Assembly: GCA_964370525.1 (NCBI GenBank)
Contig: CAYJJP010000001.1
Span: 1-40,491, forward strand
Reading direction: 5' to 3'
DNA: 40,491 bases
DNA from: an uncultured Desulfovibrionaceae bacterium
GTDB lineage: Bacteria; Desulfobacterota; Desulfovibrionia; Desulfovibrionales; Desulfovibrionaceae
Of this stretch, positions 1 through 40,491 are shown in pieces (positions within the stretch are counted from its first letter, which is position 1; each line of letters opens with the position of its first letter). Below the pieces are notes generated by a model. That model was not told the origin of the DNA. It saw only the letters and a list, made by a program, of their open reading frames with translations, and made no database searches. Position numbers and translations under genes: made by a program.

Positions 1-772
1 TGAAGCCTGTATGCGAAACGCTTCCACACCACATAACTTCGCTTGCCGCTTCATTGTGGGTTGGGTCGCCGTAATGTATCTTGCCGTTTTCCATAACAAC
101 GCGAAGCAACGCGGCTCCGACTTCGTCTGTGAACATGTTGTTGTCAAGTTTTGAGGAAAAACGTTCAAGTGTGTGCATCATTATGTCCGCTATGCCACAC
201 GCGATTTGATATTTTGGAACAGAATAAGTTAGTTCCGGGTTCATAATAGCGAAAACAGGTCGGTTAAATTCGGACGCAAGGCCGGCTTTTATGTTAGAGT
301 CTGTGTTGGTTAAAACCGCGCTGTTGCTGGTTTCGCTTCCCGCCGCCGATATAGTTAAGATAACCCCGACAGGCAATGTTTTTGTTGCGTTTTTTTTGCG
401 AAGCCAATAGTCCCATATGTCATCATCGGGGTTTGCAATTCCAAGCGCTATTGCTTTTGCGGTATCAATCGCGCTTCCGCCGCCTATGGCAAGGATGAAA
501 TCTGCGCCGAACTCGATACCTTTTTTTATGCCGTCGTATACATGTGAAAGATACGGGTTAGGGCGTGCGCCCGAAAATTCCAGAAATTCTATGTTGCTTT
601 GAGTTAGGTCAGAGATTATTCTGTCAAGTAAGCCGGATTTTGCTACGCTTCCCCCGCCATAGACGAGCATGACTCTTTTTTCGCCAAGCTTTAATATTTC
701 GGCAGCAGTTTTTTGTTCGGCGTTTTTTCCGAAAATTATTTTGGTCGGCGAATGATATTCAAATGTATTCAT
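1..772 (-). CDS. iron-containing (group III) alcohol/butanol dehydrogenase, N-terminal ~257 aa; gene runs off left edge
   Basis: Not in ORF track. Reverse complement from ATG at 772..770 reads MNTFEYHSPTKIIFGKNAEQ..MLVYGGGSVAKSGLLDR..FILAIGGGSAIDTAKAIALG.. and stays open to position 1. The GGGS and GGGSxxD motifs are typical of Fe-ADH. Confidence 0.85.
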   Translation of the reverse strand, partial: MNTFEYHSPTKIIFGKNAEQKTAAEILKLGEKRVMLVYGGGSVAKSGLLDRIISDLTQSNIEFLEFSGARPNPYLSHVYDGIKKGIEFGADFILAIGGGSAIDTAKAIALGIANPDDDIWDYWLRKKNATKTLPVGVILTISAAGSETSNSAVLTNTDSNIKAGLASEFNRPVFAIMNPELTYSVPKYQIACGIADIMMHTLERFSSKLDNNMFTDEVGAALLRVVMENGKIHYGDPTHNEAASEVMWCGSVSHTGF

Positions 773-832
773 AGTAAACTCCTTTTGAATTATAATGTAT
801 TTAATTAATAGTTTACTCTAATAAATTAATAC

Positions 833-861
833 TTGCAATATCTTTCTTAAAGTGATAAAAT
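833..861 (+). promoter_or_regulatory. candidate sigma-70 promoter upstream of tRNA-Pro
   Basis: TTGCAA (833-838), 17-bp spacer, TAAAAT (856-861) with TG at 853-854 (extended -10). It lies ~95 nt upstream of the tRNA. Confidence 0.35.
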
Positions 862-959
862 ATATAAGCTATAGTTAATAGTGGTGGCTCGGCAACGAGT
901 TGTATCACAAATCTGATTTGCAGATTGTGAAAAACCAATAGCGAATAATGAGGGAATGT

Positions 960-1036
960 CGGGACGTAGCGCAGTTTGGTAGCGCGCCTGCTTTGGGAGC
1001 AGGATGCCGCAGGTTCGAATCCTGTCGTCCCGACCA
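960..1036 (+). tRNA. tRNA-Pro: tRNA-Pro (anticodon TGG), encoded CCA
   Basis: 77-nt cloverleaf. Acceptor CGGGACG/CGTCCCG; D arm GCGC-AGTTTGGTA-GCGC; anticodon arm CCTGC-TTTGGGA-GCAGG; T arm GCAGG-TTCGAAT-CCTGT; discriminator A plus CCA. Confidence 0.9.
1020..1036 (+). repeat. attL core (3' end of tRNA-Pro)
   Basis: TCCTGTCGTCCCGACCA, identical to 39952..39968. Confidence 0.85.
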
Positions 1037-23299: not shown

Positions 23300-23517
23300 A
23301 AAAAACAAACCCTTTCAAAAAAAATTAAACAAAGAAAAAAAGCACCTTTTTTGTTAAAAAAATGCTTTTAATCTTTCAAAAAAATATAAACGGGGAGAAC
23401 TTTTGCGCAACTTGTTGTATTAACAATACCGCAGAATTCTAGCCCCCGCGTGTCAAATTCTAAAATTCTATGCAAAACGCATAAAAAAACAACAAAAACA
23501 CCGTCGCCCGCTCCGCT

Positions 23518-23580
23518 CCGGTTCTGCTCCGTGCCGGTTCTGCTCCGTGCCGGTTCTCCCGTGCCGGTTCTCCTGCTCCG
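23518..23580. repeat. GC-rich degenerate tandem repeat (4 units, 16/16/14/17 bp)
   Basis: CCGGTTCTGCTCCGTG x2, then CCGGTTCTCCCGTG and CCGGTTCTCCTGCTCCG. Confidence 0.85.
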
Positions 23581-23613
23581 ACTATAAAATAAAAATCTCG
23601 CCCGCAAGGGCGA
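23581..23613 (-). terminator. intrinsic terminator (minus strand) between the heptamer array and the GC-rich repeats
   Basis: Hairpin TCGCCC-TTGC-GGGCGA (23598-23613) followed on the minus strand by GATTTTTATTTTAT. Confidence 0.55.
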
Positions 23614-23616
23614 ACC

Positions 23617-23714
23617 TTAACTATTAACTATTAACTATTAACTATTAACTATTAATTATTAACTATTAATTATTAACTATTAACTATTAATTATTAACTA
23701 TTAATTATTAACTT
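23617..23714. repeat. 14 tandem heptamers TTAACTA/TTAATTA (98 bp)
   Basis: Read directly: 5 x TTAACTA, then alternating TTAATTA/TTAACTA units, with the last unit TTAACTT. Confidence 0.95.
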
Positions 23715-23925
23715 AAAAAAATATCGTGTATTTTCTTTTTTGTCTGTAAATTAATATTAATTGTGAAAATTATTTCAATCGTGTATTCTCTGAAAAAAAT
23801 TAAATCAAAAATATTAAAAAAATCCGTGTCCAAAATGCAAATATAAAAAAATGCACAAACACCGCGCGCACATCTTGCGCAATATGTAAAAGTTGCAAAA
23901 ATTAAAAATTATTTTGTTTTTTTGC

Positions 23926-23954
23926 TTGACATCTTGTACAAGATATAGTATAAT
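23926..23954 (+). promoter_or_regulatory. consensus sigma-70 promoter of the + strand cassette, with palindromic operator candidates
   Basis: TTGACA (23926-31), 17 bp, TATAAT (23949-54). Palindrome CTTGTACAAG in the spacer (23933-42) and GGTTGACAACC at 23971-81. Confidence 0.7.
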
Positions 23955-24005
23955 TAAATCATAAAATAAAGGTTGACAACCTAAACAGTCAGAAAGGGAA
24001 AAAAC

Positions 24006-24263
24006 ATGTACAGAAAAATTGATAATATTATTTACGACACAAAGTACAGCAAAGAACTTGGAGAAAAAATTTTCAAAAAAAACGGAAAATGGATATCAAC
24101 CCAGACACTATATATTACGCAAAACGAAGATTTTTTTATAGCCGAAATATATGACGATAACGATTGCGATGCACCGACTGATAAGATCAGACCAATAAAC
24201 GAATCAGAAGCAAACAAACTTCTTGAAGAAGGAATTTCGCCATATAAAATAATAGAACTTTAA
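24006..24263 (+). CDS. hypothetical protein ORF A (85 aa), AT-rich
   Basis: ORF track; RBS AAAGGGA. Visibly more AT-rich than the surrounding phage DNA. Confidence 0.6.
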   Translation: MYRKIDNIIYDTKYSKELGEKIFKKNGKWISTQTLYITQNEDFFIAEIYDDNDCDAPTDKIRPINESEANKLLEEGISPYKIIEL

Positions 24264-24421
24264 CCCGCCGACCGAGCGGCGCAAAACAGGCTTTAAGCTC
24301 GGAGCGTTCCGCCCCCAACCGGGCGGAGGTAGCAAAGGTAACCACCACGGCAACGTCTCGAAAAATCGAGCCGGATAAAAAAACTAAGGCGGCGGCCACA
24401 AACGCGGAAAGGGAAGCAACC
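24264..24421 (+). ncRNA. candidate structured RNA / cis-regulatory spacer (158 nt, GC-rich, no start codon)
   Basis: Nested pairings: CCGCCG(24265-70)/CGGCGG(24391-96); CCGAGC/GCTCGG; CCGCCC/GGGCGG; CTCG/CGAG. Contains copy 1 of the 24-nt element. Confidence 0.3.
24337..24360 (+). repeat. 24-nt element, copy R1
   Basis: GGTAACCACCACGGCAACGTCTCG, identical at 24844..24867 and 25150..25173. Confidence 0.95.
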
Positions 24422-24895
24422 ATGACAAACTATCAAATAATCTATAACGAACTCGTTAACCGCGAAATAATGACCGCCGAAAAGCTCGACGGCTTCATAG
24501 CTCGCTACGGTGATATACCGTTCCACACCTTTAAGGAATGGCAAAAACTAGGTCGCCAAGTTAAAAAAGGCGAAAAAGCCTTGTTTAAAGTCTCGCTTTG
24601 GCGATACGGTAAAAAAAATGTTGAAGTCAAAACCCCCGAGGGCGAAGAGAAAACAGAAAAACTCGAAAGATACTATATGCAAGATAGCCATATCTTCTCG
24701 TTCGACCAAACCGAGAAAAAACCGACGTTTAAAACTCGTAACGCGGACGAGCTCCGCGAATATAACAAAATGTTAGCCGACCAGCGCAAGCAAAAAGCCG
24801 AGCAATCGAAGCCGGAGCAAACAAACTTATTTACGCCCGAAAAGGTAACCACCACGGCAACGTCTCGGCAAGCCGAGCCGGCAACGTCTCGGTAA
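24422..24895 (+). CDS. ORF B: ArdC-N-like (ssDNA-binding, anti-restriction-type) domain protein (157 aa)
   Basis: FHTFKEWQKLGRQVKKGEKALFKVSLW resembles the W/F-x-TFKQ..LG..V+KGEK core of the ArdC N-domain (DUF1738). RBS AAAGGGAAG. The C-terminus is encoded by repeat R2. Confidence 0.45.
   Translation: MTNYQIIYNELVNREIMTAEKLDGFIARYGDIPFHTFKEWQKLGRQVKKGEKALFKVSLWRYGKKNVEVKTPEGEEKTEKLERYYMQDSHIFSFDQTEKKPTFKTRNADELREYNKMLADQRKQKAEQSKPEQTNLFTPEKVTTTATSRQAEPATSR
24844..24867 (+). repeat. 24-nt element, copy R2
   Basis: Identical 24-mer. Followed by CTCGG-CAAG-CCGAG and a second GGCAACGTCTCGG (24880-92). Confidence 0.95.
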
Positions 24896-24962
24896 AGCTA
24901 ACCAATTATAAACATATGGGAGGGGCTCCGCTCCTCCCCCCCCCAAAAAAAAGGAGAACACA

Positions 24963-25154
24963 ATGCAAAAAGAATTTAACCCAACAAAATATAAAAACGA
25001 CTTTTCAAAAGAAAAGTACGACCGAGTCATCATAACCGTTCCCAAAGGCGAGCGCGAACGAATAAAAGCCCTCGCCGAAGCGCAAAACCTCTCGGTAAAC
25101 GCCTTATACGCAAAAGCCCTCGCCCATTTTGAACAAACCGCTCTTAAACGGTAA
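24963..25154 (+). CDS. ORF C: ribbon-helix-helix (Arc/CopG-like) DNA-binding protein (63 aa)
   Basis: YDRVIITVPKGERERIKALAEAQNLSVNALYAKALAHF follows a beta-strand, helix, helix RHH pattern. RBS AAAGGAG. Confidence 0.6.
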   Translation: MQKEFNPTKYKNDFSKEKYDRVIITVPKGERERIKALAEAQNLSVNALYAKALAHFEQTALKR

Positions 25155-25173
25155 CCACCACGGCAACGTCTCG
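25150..25173 (+). repeat. 24-nt element, copy R3
   Basis: Identical 24-mer that overlaps the ORF C stop codon. Followed by two hairpins (25170-85 and 25192-209). Confidence 0.95.
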
Positions 25174-25213
25174 GCAAGCCGAGCCGTCAACGGCTCGATA
25201 AATCGAGCCATAT

Positions 25214-25243
25214 AAAAAAAGAACGCTTTTCGCGTTCTTTTTT
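25214..25243. terminator. bidirectional intrinsic terminator between convergent units
   Basis: AAAAAAAGAACGC-TTTTC-GCGTTCTTTTTT. Confidence 0.75.
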
Positions 25244-25257
25244 GCGTTTTATATTGT

Positions 25258-25536
25258 CTACTCCGAAAGGCTTTGAACAAAATCCGAAACCTTAACCGTC
25301 GTTAACCGTTTTTTTGCTAACTGATATCGAAACCATTCTCGCCCCGAAATAAAATATCTGCGCTTTATCATCTCGACGTCCGAATAGAACCAGTCTTTAA
25401 CTATCTGCCTTTCAAAACACCCGCAACCCTCGCAACCCTGCGAAGCATATAAAACTTGAATTAAATCGTCTCCCGTCAAAACTTCGTTTTTTAAATCCTC
25501 GTTAACCTCCGCTAAAATCTCCGCGTTACTATACAT
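25258..25536 (-). CDS. hypothetical protein (92 aa from ATG 25536)
   Basis: AAAGGTG RBS 8-9 nt upstream of ATG 25536; CEGCGC motif. Confidence 0.5.
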   Translation of the reverse strand: MYSNAEILAEVNEDLKNEVLTGDDLIQVLYASQGCEGCGCFERQIVKDWFYSDVEMIKRRYFISGREWFRYQLAKKRLTTVKVSDFVQSLSE

Positions 25537-25605
25537 AAAAAAAACACCTTTCAAAAATTTTTTAAACTTGTCAACATTATATCATATTTTTTACTTTTTA
25601 AATAG

Positions 25606-25998
25606 CTACAAAAGGCTGTCAAGCCGTTCAAAAAACAAAATACGCCTCGAGTAAAACTCCGCCCTCGAATAACAAACAACGCCAAAAAGCGAAACAATAA
25701 TATCGTAGCTATTTCCCGACACAAGTCCCTTTAAAAATAAATCGGTTTGCGACGGAAAAGAAAACTTCGCCGCCTCCTCAATAGCGTCAATCTTCTTGCT
25801 ATACCTCAAAGCGCGTTCCGCCGAATTGGCGGTCGGATCTCCTATAGCGTTTTTTACCTTGGCCCCCGAAAATCCGTTCCCCGAAATCTCGTAAAAACTC
25901 AACACAAGTTTTTTCATCTCCTTGTATTGTCTTAAAATGCTTTCAAGTTCGTTTTGTCGAGCCCTTGATAACCCTGTCTTTGGCTTATAGTTACGCAT
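25606..25998 (-). CDS. RinA-family-like late transcriptional activator
   Basis: ATG 25998 with a GGAGG RBS. RARQNELESILRQYKEMKK .. AIGDPTANSAERAL .. KIDAIEEA .. SRAEFYSRR parallels the RinA layout. Confidence 0.55.
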   Translation of the reverse strand: MRNYKPKTGLSRARQNELESILRQYKEMKKLVLSFYEISGNGFSGAKVKNAIGDPTANSAERALRYSKKIDAIEEAAKFSFPSQTDLFLKGLVSGNSYDIIVSLFGVVCYSRAEFYSRRILFFERLDSLL

Positions 25999-26210: not shown

Positions 26211-27002
26211 CTACATGTTCAGTTTTAAAAGCCTAACAAAAACGTTATATCCCGAGATATCGCTATAAATAACCTCGGGGTCTTGCGCTAAATAATAACC
26301 CGGATACCTTTCGCTCCAGTATTGTTTGTCAAAACAAAGCCCCCTCGCGAGTTCCTCAAGTTTTCCGCCCCCCGCCTTGTCGGTTGGTGCGTGAACTTTC
26401 GGCATAGTAAGGTTTTTAGACTGTTTCCAACGCCGTTGTCCGCTTTGCGTTTTTGTGATATAAATCCGTAACCGCTGAATGTTATCCGCGTGAATATTAA
26501 GGCGAGACCCAACAACAAACCCAAACGAAACAAAATTCTTGTCAACCGTTATCCCCCAAAGACTTTCGACAACCTCGGGAGTAACAAACCAAGGCAAAAC
26601 GGCGTGCTGATGACATCTAACCGCTTCGCCGTCCTTGTCCTTCGTTTCGGTCACCGCGATATATTTAAACTCATCTAACCGATCTCGATAAAAATATCTA
26701 AGTCTACGAATAAAGTTATCTAAATCTCGTTCACCCTGTTTTTTTGTTTCGGGTTCGTGTCCTTCGGAATAAGTAAGAGTATAAAACCACCCGCGCTTTT
26801 CGGTGAAATTTGCAAAAAGCAAACGGTCAAAATGTCTAACAGCGTTTTTTTCATTCAACCGAACTTGCGATTCGGTACTTGCGTTAAATTTTTTCGCCCT
26901 TGCCTTTTTCGCCTGCTTGGTCGAAACTTTAAAAAACTCTAAATCAATACAAACGCCGTTTCCGCATGTCGTTTTTTTCTCGCGTGTGTAACTGTTAGCC
27001 AT
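26211..27002 (-). CDS. HUH-superfamily rolling-circle replication initiator (Rep)-like protein
   Basis: 263 aa. Motif I FYTLTY, FIRRLR..KYIAVTE, HUH motif RCHQHAVL, Tyr motif RIYITKTQ..RRWKQSKNL. Confidence 0.6.
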   Translation of the reverse strand: MANSYTREKKTTCGNGVCIDLEFFKVSTKQAKKARAKKFNASTESQVRLNEKNAVRHFDRLLFANFTEKRGWFYTLTYSEGHEPETKKQGERDLDNFIRRLRYFYRDRLDEFKYIAVTETKDKDGEAVRCHQHAVLPWFVTPEVVESLWGITVDKNFVSFGFVVGSRLNIHADNIQRLRIYITKTQSGQRRWKQSKNLTMPKVHAPTDKAGGGKLEELARGLCFDKQYWSERYPGYYLAQDPEVIYSDISGYNVFVRLLKLNM

Positions 27003-27082
27003 TCTTTTGAAACCCTCTCTTTTTTAAATTCGCAATTTTCCGCTTTGCTTCGTCGCACAATTAATAACGTATACCAGCTATA

Positions 27083-28090: not shown

Positions 28091-28423
28091 TCAATCATAG
28101 CTTGTTGATTTATCAAACTCAATGTTTCGTTTAACCCCCGAAATTTCCTCAACGCAAAAATTCTTAACGCGAAGACAAATTCGACAATCTGAACAAACGC
28201 TCTCGTTTGCAAGCTCAACGCCCCCAAACGAAACCCGACACAAAACAACCGGTCGCCTATCTTTGCAAACGTCGCAAACATCTTTAAACTTTCCTTTTTT
28301 GCGTTTAATTTTAAAAGTCTCAAACCAAGTCTTAAAACAAGGCTTCCTTTGCTCAAGTCCTCTTTCCCTCTCCATAGTCCAAAACGCAACCGCCGCTTCA
28401 TACGGCTTTAAGTTCTTTTTCAA
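28091..28423 (-). CDS. Cys-rich zinc-finger protein (110 aa)
   Basis: TTG start with AAAGGAGG 6 nt upstream. CDVCKD..C..CSDCRIC. Confidence 0.5.
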   Translation of the reverse strand: MKKNLKPYEAAVAFWTMERERGLEQRKPCFKTWFETFKIKRKKGKFKDVCDVCKDRRPVVLCRVSFGGVELANESVCSDCRICLRVKNFCVEEISGVKRNIEFDKSTSYD

Positions 28424-29357
28424 AACAATCCTCCTTTCGTTGTTTTTCCGCTAAAACTCTCTCTAAAACATTAACTAAACCAACAAGCGTTGCGTTACAA
28501 TCTTTAGAGCGCGGAGCTCGTCCGACTTTTCTTGCCGCAACCGGCGGCATATTATCAAAAAAATTCCCGTCGCCGATAAGTTCTCTAACAACGTCTAAAC
28601 GATCGCTCTTATACGTGTTATAAACCTTACCCCTTACGCTACAAACCGAAGTATTTAAAGCGTCCGCTATTGCCGTATAACCGGCCCCGTTTTTAATCAT
28701 GTTTCCTAAAATATCAATTTCAGCCTTTGACCAATTAAAATAAGATTCGGGCGCCAAAGGCCGAGCCGTTAACCCTAAACACTGTACACGTCGACGAATA
28801 GCCCCTTCGCTTCGATTTAACAATAATCTAAGGTCCTTATATGAATATTTAAACTCAGACAAATACTTTCTAAGCCTGTCGTCCTCGAACTTTGTCCAAC
28901 GATCCTCTCTAAATCTCTCGACAACATCTTGCTTCCGTTGGGCGTCAACCCAAGCCGGTTCTTTACCAAGCGCGCCGACCGGAAACCTGTCCCAAGGTAT
29001 TAAAGTTCTATTTACCTTCGCAAATCGCCAAAACTCCGAAATAGAAACTGTACAAAAAGTTTCGTTATATACCTTTTTATACCTAACCGAAAGCCCTTTT
29101 GAGATCCAACGCTCCTTAACGTCGCCCGAGGTATACCCAAAAACGGCAACAAGAACGCTATTTAAAGTAGGATTGTCGCAATTCGACAAAAAGCTCCCAA
29201 GACCTAACCTATTTACCTTAAGACGTATAGCCATTTCGCTCCGATTTAGCTTTAAACAAATCCCCCTAAGAGATATCCTCCCCCAAAGCTCCGAAAGAAG
29301 TTCTTCCTCCTCTTGTGTCCAATGCCTTTTCTTTTTTTTACTTTTAACAAGTTCCAT
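28398..29357 (-). CDS. DNA-binding protein with three Myb/SANT-like repeats
   Basis: HWTQEEEELLSELW, RWTKFEDDRLRKYL, NWSKAEIDILGNMI, each followed by an HTH-like ..S..A+R.R segment. Confidence 0.45.
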   Translation of the reverse strand: MELVKSKKKKRHWTQEEEELLSELWGRISLRGICLKLNRSEMAIRLKVNRLGLGSFLSNCDNPTLNSVLVAVFGYTSGDVKERWISKGLSVRYKKVYNETFCTVSISEFWRFAKVNRTLIPWDRFPVGALGKEPAWVDAQRKQDVVERFREDRWTKFEDDRLRKYLSEFKYSYKDLRLLLNRSEGAIRRRVQCLGLTARPLAPESYFNWSKAEIDILGNMIKNGAGYTAIADALNTSVCSVRGKVYNTYKSDRLDVVRELIGDGNFFDNMPPVAARKVGRAPRSKDCNATLVGLVNVLERVLAEKQRKEDCFEKELKAV

Positions 29358-38651: not shown

Positions 38652-39785
38652 ATGCCCATATACAAAATGTCCGGCAAGCGTGACGGGCTCTCGCAATACC
38701 GTGTGCGAATAAACTATATCGACGCGCTCGGCAAAAAAAAACAGCTCGACCGTATAGCCTACGGCAAAGCCGAAGCCTCGCTCCTCGAGGCGGAACTAAA
38801 AAAGCAAGTCTCGGCAAAAGATATCGCAACAACAATGTCGATAGCCGAGCTATACGAAGAATACATAAAAAACAAAAAAAGCGAGGTTCGAGAGACCTCG
38901 CTTTTAAAAACGATCGCAACCTTTAAAAATCATATACTCCCCATATTAAAAGACGTTAAACTAAACAACATAAAACCCCAAACGCTCCAAAACTGGAAAT
39001 CGGAAGTTCTTAAAAAAAATTTAGCCTTTGTTTCAACAAAAAATACTTATAAGGAGCTTTCCGCCCTTTTTAATTACGCTGTAAGACTACAGTATATAAA
39101 CCAAAACCCGCTCCGTCTTGTCGGAAACTTTAAAGATCCCTATTTTAAGCCGGAACAAGAAAAAATCTGCTACTACACGGCCGACCAATTTAAAGCGTTT
39201 ATATCCGTTGCAAAAATCGAAGCCCAAAAACAAAACAACCTAACCGCTTGGGGTTATTACGTTTTTTTTAACATAGCGTTTTACACCGGAATGCGAAAAG
39301 GCGAGATAAACGCGCTTCGATGGAGCGACCTCGAGGGCGATATAATTTATATAAAAAAAAGTATAACCCAAAAAATAAAGGGAAAACCAAACGTCGAAAC
39401 TCCCCCAAAAAACAAATCAAGCTATCGCCAAATAGCTGCCCCGCTCCCCCTGCTTAAAATCCTAACAGAACACAAACAGCGCCAAGCAAAATTAAGCTTA
39501 AGCGCAAACGCCCTAATCTGTGGCGGCGAAAACCCTCTCCGAGACACAACGCTTTCAAACAAAAATATCGAATTTGCAAAACTCGCCAATATCCCAACAA
39601 TAAGAATCCACGACTTTCGCCACTCCCACGCCTCTCTTCTGATTAATGAGGGCATAAACATAAAAGAGATCTCTCGCCGCCTTGGCCACGCCAAAGTAGA
39701 AATAACGTGGAACACCTATGGCCACCTATACCCCCAAGAAGAAACCAAAGTTTTAAATATTTTAAACAATATATCAATAGATTAA
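38652..39785 (+). CDS. int: tyrosine recombinase / phage integrase
   Basis: 377 aa. ..TGMRKGEINALRW.. and IRIHDFRHSHASLLINEGI..ISRRLGHAKVEITWNTYGHLY (R..HxxR..Y catalytic motifs). Adjacent to attR. Confidence 0.9.
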   Translation: MPIYKMSGKRDGLSQYRVRINYIDALGKKKQLDRIAYGKAEASLLEAELKKQVSAKDIATTMSIAELYEEYIKNKKSEVRETSLLKTIATFKNHILPILKDVKLNNIKPQTLQNWKSEVLKKNLAFVSTKNTYKELSALFNYAVRLQYINQNPLRLVGNFKDPYFKPEQEKICYYTADQFKAFISVAKIEAQKQNNLTAWGYYVFFNIAFYTGMRKGEINALRWSDLEGDIIYIKKSITQKIKGKPNVETPPKNKSSYRQIAAPLPLLKILTEHKQRQAKLSLSANALICGGENPLRDTTLSNKNIEFAKLANIPTIRIHDFRHSHASLLINEGINIKEISRRLGHAKVEITWNTYGHLYPQEETKVLNILNNISID

Positions 39786-39832: not shown

Positions 39833-39951
39833 AACATTTTTTAATTTATCGAAAAAACCAAACAAAACAAAACAAAACAAAAACCGCCCAAATAAAGCGT
39901 TTTCAACACATACCAAAACAACAAAAAATACAACAAAATAATAAATTCAAC

Positions 39952-39968
39952 TCCTGTCGTCCCGACCA
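39952..39968 (+). repeat. attR core
   Basis: TCCTGTCGTCCCGACCA, identical to 1020..1036. Confidence 0.85.
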
Positions 39969-39971
39969 GTC

Positions 39972-40014
39972 AGAGTGTTCTTATAGGATTTCACCTATAA
40001 GGACACTCTTTTTA
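39972..40014 (+). terminator. ancestral tRNA-Pro terminator displaced by the prophage
   Basis: 16-bp stem AGAGTGTTCTTATAGG/CCTATAAGGACACTCT (one G-U pair), followed by TTTTATTT. Confidence 0.7.
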
Positions 40015-40015
40015 T

Positions 40016-40491
40016 TTACACTTCCGGTGTCCATTCCACCCCCTTGCGCACTTTCAATTTCACAGGTTCTGATTTCAATTTTTCAAGTTGCTCTGGGTGA
40101 ACCTGTCCAACATAATTATAATGTATCTCTAAACGTTGCTTCAAGTAACCATCTTCTTTTTTTGCATGGTGCACCACAATTTTCTCAACAAGGTCATGCA
40201 AAATCCCTCGTGTCAGCTTTTTTATTCGTGTATACCTTTTAATTGTAGACATAAATGCTTTGTAATTTGATGCTTTTGATTCAAGTTCTTGCAAGTGTTT
40301 CTGTTTATCTACAAGTGTAGCTTCAAGTTCTGACTGTTCCTCATTGTATTTCTGAGACATCTGTGCAAACCTATCGTTTGTAATTACTCCAAATACATTA
40401 TCTTCATAAAGCTTTGAAAATATTGTTTCAAGTTGCTTTAGCCTATTACTAATTTTCATAATATCGTTTGCTATGGTTTTTTTATCTTTCT
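40016..40491 (-). CDS. C-terminal part of a large serine recombinase (DUF4368-type); open to the right edge
   Basis: ..LETIFSKLYEDNVFGVITNDRFAQMSQKYNEEQSELE..IKKLTRGILHDLVEKIVVHH..LEIHYNYVG matches the C-terminal coiled-coil/DUF4368 region of Clostridial TndX/TnpX-like recombinases. The frame stays open upstream of the listed ATG. Confidence 0.6.
   Translation of the reverse strand, partial: KDKKTIANDIMKISNRLKQLETIFSKLYEDNVFGVITNDRFAQMSQKYNEEQSELEATLVDKQKHLQELESKASNYKAFMSTIKRYTRIKKLTRGILHDLVEKIVVHHAKKEDGYLKQRLEIHYNYVGQVHPEQLEKLKSEPVKLKVRKGVEWTPEV

Follow-up and report, generated by a model that had tools for sequence, protein, structure and literature searches.

Why the self-cleaving ribozymes of bacteria and phages cluster round small accessory genes, those for anti-restriction functions included, is an open question (PMC6765202, PMC3088659). 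The locus described here, which lies within a window of 40,491 nucleotides (nt; positions 1 to 40,491 of contig CAYJJP010000001.1, assembly GCA_964370525.1), raises a related one, in that a short three-gene cassette carries after each of its open reading frames (ORFs) a copy of the same 24-nt sequence, GGTAACCACCACGGCAACGTCTCG, running into small hairpins. A first-pass annotation made from the letters alone had drawn attention to this element, hereafter R, with its copies R1, R2 and R3, and had left its role among several possibilities. What, then, is R doing at the gene boundaries? The answer preferred here, at a probability of roughly 0.35, is that R serves as RNA-level punctuation at boundaries that in comparable phage cassettes are occupied by self-cleaving ribozymes, and that it was multiplied by recombination; both the RNA role and what R would do in that role we infer from the layout of the transcript and from the company that R keeps.

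Three copies of a repeat in one transcript

The 24-mer is present in three exact copies (24337-24360, 24844-24867 and 25150-25173), all on the + strand and at the positions first reported for them; the window holds no further copy at up to three mismatches, and none of 100 dinucleotide shuffles contains a match, the chance expectation being none. With its copies aligned in register, R opens with a leader of 12 nt, GGTAACCACCAC. Behind this come hairpin units of 24 nt that read GGCAACGTCTCG-N2-AA-N2-CGAGCC, one in R1 and two in each of the other copies (in R2 the second lacks its 3' arm, in R3 both are intact), and in R1 and R3 an A-rich tail closes the element. Removing exactly 24 nt from the interior of R3 gives R1. 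R2 and R3 share 37 identical nt and are 86% identical across 73 nt, R1 and R2 have in common an 18-mer, AAAGGTAACCACCACGGC, and R1 and R3 share the end CGAGCC..ATAAAAAAA, while the similarity of all three begins at a sharp 5' edge, AA(A/C)GGTAACC. The hairpins are there in the sequence as the annotation had drawn them, the intact units forming in fact 8-9 bp stems with one U.C mismatch each (-7.5 to -12 kcal/mol); four of the five units keep the hairpin, with one G-C to A-U double change, and the invariant part of R is its leader, not the hairpin. The mutually exclusive helices that had been proposed are an automatic result of the tandem duplication of a 24-nt unit, and there is no sign of an actual switch.

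The three copies stand in different coding contexts, as had been noted: R1 lies in non-coding sequence, the C-terminal 16 residues of ORF B (VTTTATSRQAEPATSR) are read from R2, whose unit B contains the ORF B stop codon, and R3 lies over the end of ORF C, whose stop codon (TAA, 25152-25154) it supplies. Identity across such contexts bears out the view that conservation is at the nucleotide and not the protein level. Stop codons are found in all three frames of R3 and in two frames of both R1 and R2. Frameshifting or read-through that would add an R-encoded tail to a protein was considered and rejected, as the sequence, when read through, offers no slippery site in a suitable frame, has a stop in the -1 frame just 5' of R3, and leaves too long a spacer before the R2 hairpin.

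All three copies belong to one transcript of ~1.28 kb. The + strand island that contains them is bounded by its only strong promoter (the only one on that strand in 23300-25700) and its only + strand terminator, and is for this reason a single transcription unit, with the order promoter, ORF A, pistol ribozyme, R1, ardC-N-like gene, R2, ribbon-helix-helix (RHH) gene, R3, terminator. The terminator closes the cassette transcript on one strand and the early operon on the other, and it starts inside the A-rich tail of R3, 5 nt past the last hairpin. The R hairpins themselves, of which it had been said that none is a canonical terminator, have no T-run, and none of them is called as an intrinsic terminator on either strand. 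A search of 23300-25700 placed no promoter or terminator inside R.

What had been taken for non-coding spacer ahead of R1 is occupied by a pistol self-cleaving ribozyme (RF02679), with an Rfam score of 65.0 bits against a gathering threshold of 34.5 (E 5e-11) over model positions 1-68 of 68. The alignment is complete, comprising the P1 hairpin, the P1-loop pseudoknot (CCGAG of the loop with CUCGG), P2 with three of its four pairs, P3, the AAA..UUA..GAGCGU core and the G-U cleavage step. Gaps of 2 nt separate the ribozyme from the stop codon of ORF A on one side and from R1 on the other. From the conserved G-U step of the family, cleavage is predicted between G24329 and U24330, and the new 5'-OH end would then lie 7 nt from R1. 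Three closer connections between pistol and R were tried and dropped: R is not a conserved 3' extension of the ribozyme, as the 3' flanks of ~40 IMG/VR pistols are unrelated to it; no complementarity to P3 can be read from the sequence by which the pistol might cleave R2 or R3 in trans; and the CTCGG and CCGAG arms that might link the pseudoknot with R are 5-mers common in the window (72 and 28 copies).

The exact 24-mer has no match in IMG/VR, in 185,579 species genomes (GTDB) or in the JGI metagenomes, the genome set including a contig of a near-identical host genome with an empty attachment site. A pattern of the hairpin unit gave six matches in IMG/VR, and a gapped pattern of leader plus palindrome gave ten in metagenomes, all of them unrelated on inspection. 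Phages and plasmids had been named among the places to look for relatives of R; blastn against collections of both returned no R match, and blastn-short against 149 fetched loci and seven loci with RHH homologues returned no significant one. In an Rfam scan of 23300-25600 at E <= 10 nothing matched over R1 or R2, and the five families that reach R3 with its adjacent terminator do so by chance and far below threshold (for example BSnc120 at 24 vs 114 bits and isrK at 19 vs 50 bits). R is uncatalogued, in agreement with the earlier failure to place it in any element class, and the ArdC-like gene, the pistol and the arrangement with ribozymes on the flanks are of kinds already known. A dispersed host repeat of the repetitive extragenic palindromic (REP), BOX or miniature inverted-repeat transposable element type was rejected, there being three copies in the window and none in the genome set, the near-identical host included.

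Table 1. Features of the cassette and its surroundings in the window.
Feature	Position	Strand	Description
Attachment core	1020-1036; 39952-39968		TCCTGTCGTCCCGACCA, 17 bp, repeated; first copy at 3' end of tRNA gene 960-1033
Region between small terminase and cassette promoter	23513-23574, 23617-23713, 23597-23614		repeats, AT-rich run, - strand terminator
Cassette promoter	23926..23954	+	TTGACA-17-TATAAT, 12/12 consensus match to sigma-70
Likely ORF C RHH operator	23932-23943		palindrome TCTTGTACAAGA, 12 bp, in spacer of cassette promoter
ORF A	24006..24263	+	85 aa, function unknown, AT-rich, 31% GC
Pistol ribozyme (RF02679)	24266..24334	+	full-length, self-cleaving
R1	24337..24384	+	leader, one unit CUCGA-AAAA-UCGAG (24357-24370), tail GGATAAAAAAAC; non-coding
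ORF B	24422..24895	+	157 aa, ArdC N-terminal-like domain (anti-restriction, ssDNA-binding)
R2	24844..24913	+	leader, unit A CUCGG-CAAG-CCGAG (24864-24877), unit B, tail AATTATAAAC
Separate hairpin	24918..24938	+	GGGAGGGGC-UCC-GCUCCUCCC, -16.8 kcal/mol, between R2 and ORF C ribosome-binding site; outside repeat
ORF C	24963..25154	+	63 aa RHH protein; phrog_13890 E 3e-12, weak Pfam RHH_5 and Arc matches
R3	25150..25221	+	leader, unit A (25170-25183), unit B GGCUCGA-UAAA-UCGAGCC (25192-25209), tail ATATAAAAAAAG
Terminator	25215-25243	both	canonical bidirectional intrinsic, AAAAAAGAACGC / GCGTTCTTTTTT, 12-bp stem + T6
HUH Rep gene	26211-27002	-	rolling-circle Rep, PF23343, phrog_3584
Motif upstream of rep	27051-27078	-	probable nick or binding region
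Myb-like protein gene	28398-29357		regulator
Tyrosine integrase gene	38652-39785		adjoins attachment site

R as a possible RNA signal or a possible DNA joint

Under the preferred reading, R would be a module for recognition and stability, in which a single-stranded leader (GGUAACCACCAC) precedes a hairpin or a pair of them and a tail rich in A and U. Once the pistol had cleaved, R would show where the ardC-like and RHH segments end, and recombination or slippage from one repeat to another would probably account for the number of copies and for their continued identity. The operon as a whole would be a self-contained anti-restriction 'moron' of a temperate Oscillospiraceae prophage, with an RHH-operated promoter. 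A role in RNA processing is favoured because R1 abuts a self-cleaving ribozyme that is present at full length, and because R1, R2 and R3 flank an anti-restriction gene and a second gene just as three hammerheads flank ardA and another gene. That the three exact copies are co-oriented and limited to the one + strand island of the prophage argues in the same direction, as do the hairpin kept in most units, the absence of promoters and terminators from R, and the better sites that the two DNA-binding proteins encoded nearby have in other places.

A number of observations weigh against such a role. The fold energies of the R1 and R2 regions are ordinary in comparison with shuffled sequence (z = -0.1 and -1.7), and the value for the R3 region (z = -5) says little about R3 itself, the stretch that was folded including the terminator hairpin (-13.1 kcal/mol). 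The R hairpins are weak, the leader has a pairing probability close to the transcript mean, with no special accessibility predicted, and the covariation that had been looked to in the stems is negligible, consisting of a single covarying pair that 261 of 500 shuffles equal. R has no multi-helix junction, pseudoknot or catalytic architecture and matches no ribozyme in Rfam, and, as far as sequence comparison goes, it is at present confined to one genome, so that comparative support is absent. Its positions are also awkward for an RNA signal: a cut by the pistol leaves R1 and ORF A on different RNAs, no gene follows R3, and R2 lies within the coding sequence of ORF B, where a cut in the 24-mer would give a non-stop mRNA. 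No single 5' or 3' logic suits all three copies. Duplexes of R with the rest of the transcript were also considered and rejected, the best of them (-16 kcal/mol) being weaker than the best found elsewhere on the + strand (-24 kcal/mol). A Chi-like GTGGTGG on the reverse strand, a Myb site (YAACNG) and a likeness to a tRNA CCA end or to 16S rRNA were also considered and are left as unsupported leads.

A more radical RNA hypothesis is that R is a new and very small processing motif, self-cleaving or the dedicated target of an endoribonuclease of host or phage, which stands in for the hammerhead or pistol at the second and third of the three boundaries. The positions of R do match the layout of ribozyme-flanked anti-restriction genes, and R1, the copy from which one unit has been lost, is the only one next to a pistol. 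We nonetheless regard the idea as improbable, given that an unpaired leader of 16-20 nt with one or two simple hairpins offers no junction or pseudoknot, that the second units of R2 and R3 differ in structure, that Rfam yields no ribozyme match even at E <= 10, and that a cut in the 24-mer of R2 would remove the stop codon of ORF B. Were it true, it would provide a direct way to study why phages cut such operons into pieces.

A different view places R at the level of DNA, as blocks of 24-37 bp of homology that flank exchangeable genes, with homologous or single-strand-annealing recombination between the blocks inserting, deleting, swapping or amplifying the genes, and the hairpins and any effects on RNA being incidental. 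This is tentatively held to be almost as likely as an RNA role. The perfect identity of the copies and their sharp 5' edges between three unrelated ORFs are what one would expect of such joints, as is the way in which R overlaps the ends of ORFs and supplies their stop codons, in R3 in three frames. The number of units varies, and the relation of R1 to R3, a loss of exactly 24 nt, is of the sort that arises from recombination or slippage; ORF A has a G+C content of 31% against 43-45% in the R-bounded block, and the phage encodes a PD-(D/E)XK exonuclease, a type usually paired with an annealing protein. There is moreover a documented precedent in the promoter-early stem-loops (PeSLs) of other phages, for which the formation of mini-circles has been described (PMC2839356). 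Yet R was found in none of the other genomes searched, and exchange has left no trace there: contigs that differ in what the cassette contains did not come to light, and look-ups of the exact proteins, those of the three ORFs and the small terminase, led to no second contig encoding any of them. Direct repeats 300-500 bp apart are prone to deletion and would need to bring some benefit to persist, and the conserved orientation in the transcript and the retained hairpin are left unexplained by a purely recombinational role. With respect to base composition, the G+C content is at most 31% in ORF A and the promoter region and 43-68% in the pistol and the R-bounded block (24266-25221), which suggests a mosaic joint at the stop codon of ORF A.

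DNA-binding proteins, neighbouring genes and the prophage

The first-pass annotation had proposed that R might be bound by the RHH protein, ORF C, or recognised as single-stranded hairpins by the HUH protein encoded nearby, and in both cases a more convincing site lies elsewhere. The palindrome TCTTGTACAAGA, which occurs once in the window, stands upstream of the RHH gene at every one of the seven loci with an ORF C homologue and is absent from the 180 other loci fetched. The homologues, on seven contigs, are 54-67% identical to ORF C; in four of them (L184-L187) the RHH gene is divergent and next to an ArdC gene, and one homologue at 54% identity is found in this divergent arrangement with ArdC genes and the same palindrome. 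Around every homologue (L181-L187) the palindrome occurs from one to six times. What is seen in these loci looks like a conserved regulatory unit of RHH protein, operator and anti-restriction gene, and by the same comparison ORF C is very probably an autorepressor of the cassette promoter. Because TCTTGTACAAGA accompanies the RHH family and R does not, R is very probably not the operator of ORF C. The idea that it might be, for which the RHH gene in the cassette had spoken, is largely refuted. The anti-defence context would also accommodate R as a mimic of a repeat of clustered regularly interspaced short palindromic repeats (CRISPR), that is, as an RNA anti-CRISPR built on a solitary repeat unit, and published RNA anti-CRISPRs do lie near anti-defence genes (PMC10651486). 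Such a mimic would be expected to be at least 90% identical to a CRISPR repeat, ideally one of the host. On the collections scanned it seems improbable, in that no CRISPR-DR family of Rfam matches at E <= 10, the 24-mer is in no JGI metagenome and in none of the 185,579 genomes, the near-identical host among them, and the invariant part of R is the leader rather than the hairpin that Cas6-type proteins would recognise.

The HUH protein is a rolling-circle Rep whose gene lies 1 kb off, and the CAAC..CTCG-loop shape of R may bear a loose likeness to the nick regions of rolling-circle replication. In five phages with homologues of this Rep (L188-L192), however, a motif, GGCTTGTA..GGTATTAAC..CGACCAT, is conserved in position just upstream of rep, and its counterpart in the window, which is unrelated to R, would be the probable nick or binding region of the PF23343-type Rep family. 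R is therefore an unlikely substrate for Rep, on support that is moderate, the alignment of the motif having 63% column identity. Three co-oriented nick sites would, in addition, cut the genome into circles, and R lies across the terminator from rep, in a different and oppositely oriented transcription unit. Nicking or termination by Rep at R must accordingly be thought very improbable.

R might also be a double-stranded binding site for some other regulator, such as the Myb-like protein encoded nearby. All intact units contain the palindrome (G)KCTCG-N6-CGAGCC, 14-18 bp long and with half-sites one helical turn apart, and this follows the direct repeats GGTAAC and GGCAAC (GGYAAC), which are spaced at 12 bp. 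The rest of the prophage, its promoters included, contains no further instance of the motif, though, the 3' ends of genes are unusual places for the sites of a regulator, and the 20 perfectly conserved bp are not palindromic; a regulator site of this kind seems unlikely.

As to the genes of the cassette, ORF A has no Pfam family above the cut-off (a weak match to ATLF has E 0.063) and no PHROG, NCBIfam or phage tblastn match; that it might be an RNA-binding partner was set aside, its AlphaFold model being too poor for use (pLDDT, the predicted local distance difference test score, of 53). ORF B matches PF08401 (E 4.5e-7) and, over residues 1-99, phrog_25027 (E 4e-18). Its phage homologues cover these residues only, and a set of 5.8 billion proteins held no homologue but ORF B itself. 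The C-terminal ~55 residues (24739-24895) are a low-complexity extension beyond the aligned homologues, the last 16 of them being R2 read in frame. Between R2 and ORF C, in the separate hairpin of Table 1, a Shine-Dalgarno-like GGGAGGGG pairs with CCUCCC, and runs of C9 and A8 come next, just 5' of the real ribosome-binding site of ORF C; the hairpin could be a translational control element.

The window is a temperate prophage integrated in a tRNA gene of a member of the Oscillospiraceae. The attachment core is repeated at its two ends, a tyrosine integrase gene adjoins the second copy, and the empty attachment site is preserved on a contig (L156) of an uncultured Oscillospiraceae genome, which joins window positions 40491..39946 directly to 1036..1 with both flanks >99% identical to the window. 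Nearly all phage genes are on the - strand, and the cassette, which lies between the early/replication genes and the small terminase, is the sole + strand island inside the phage. In the region between the small terminase and the cassette promoter a G+C-rich repeat of 16 nt, CCGTGCCGGTTCTGCT, occurs four times, TTAACTA/TTAATTA recurs ~14 times in a run within a stretch of 12-22% GC, and there is a - strand terminator; these features (23513-23713) could be a packaging or origin region. Relatives by the large terminase comprise 36 loci at 42-49% identity and, closest of all, those from Logan and NCBI at 55-58%. No comparable repeat is found in these relatives, and no pistol was seen either by a pattern search of the IMG/VR loci or when L037, L038 and L042, half of the six nearest loci, were scanned with Rfam. 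ORF B and Rep led to no close relatives in IMG/VR, and by such comparisons the phage appears to be nearly an orphan.

Comparison with known systems

The palindromes that follow each ORF recall the attC sites of integrons, where an imperfect palindrome likewise lies after each ORF of a cassette array; on reading, the core sites RYYYAAC...GTTRRRY are absent from R, and the only integrase is that of the prophage. A likeness may also be seen to the PeSLs of T4-type phages, which are short, highly conserved stem-loop cassettes that contain a strong sigma-70 promoter and a true terminator, flank non-essential ORFs and act as substrates on which recombination shuffles modules (PMC2839356, PMC4122927). 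R too is a set of repeated stem-loop modules that flank ORFs in one genome, but it is without promoter or terminator, its three copies share one transcript, and none is found in other phages. If R is a recombination linker only, the locus would bring PeSL-like modular shuffling to a setting outside the T4-type phages, in a prophage of gut Firmicutes.

Homologous hairpins between cistrons that set the ends and the stability of mRNAs are well known from the RNase III sites of the T7 early genes and from REP sequences and bacterial interspersed mosaic elements (BIMEs). In T7, however, the sites form irregular duplexes as long as ~20 bp, and REP sequences are dispersed in hundreds of copies, whereas the hairpins of R have 8-9 bp and its 24-mer is absent from the species-representative genomes.

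The nearest parallel is with the self-cleaving ribozymes that are known to gather round single genes in prophages. In Agrobacterium tumefaciens three hammerheads flank ardA and a second gene, and in Legionella ardA comes directly after a hammerhead (PMC3088659). Among the IMG/VR loci, arrays of near-identical pistols are placed mostly directly ahead of a small ORF, with three copies in L121 (813-1576), four in L125 (4604-6659) and two in L093 (7091-7721), and in L092 (1682-2673) a full-length ArdC gene (ArdcN + MPTase-PolyVal) has a pistol immediately before it. A hammerhead-like core, CUGAUGA...GAAAC...GUC, picked out by eye after that ArdC gene (2676-2760) was rejected, having no Rfam support at E <= 1. 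The repeated unit in L121 and L125 is a pistol plus an A-rich leader reaching as far as the start codon; it sits in the gap between the stop codon of one gene and the start codon of the following one, in contrast to R, which overlaps coding ends. Here, moreover, only one boundary carries a genuine pistol, and R2 and R3 match no family and have no plausible catalytic fold. What the phage ribozyme clusters share with R is the layout itself, near-identical short RNA modules at successive gene boundaries, an anti-restriction gene among them.

Whichever role R proves to have, the annotation of the region is corrected with respect to the pistol, the RHH operator, the terminator and the ends of the prophage. 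If R is a processing or stability signal, the locus would be a compact natural experiment in which the function of the boundary, and not catalytic RNA as such, is what matters, for it sets a canonical pistol and a non-ribozyme repeat at equivalent boundaries of one short, delimited transcript.

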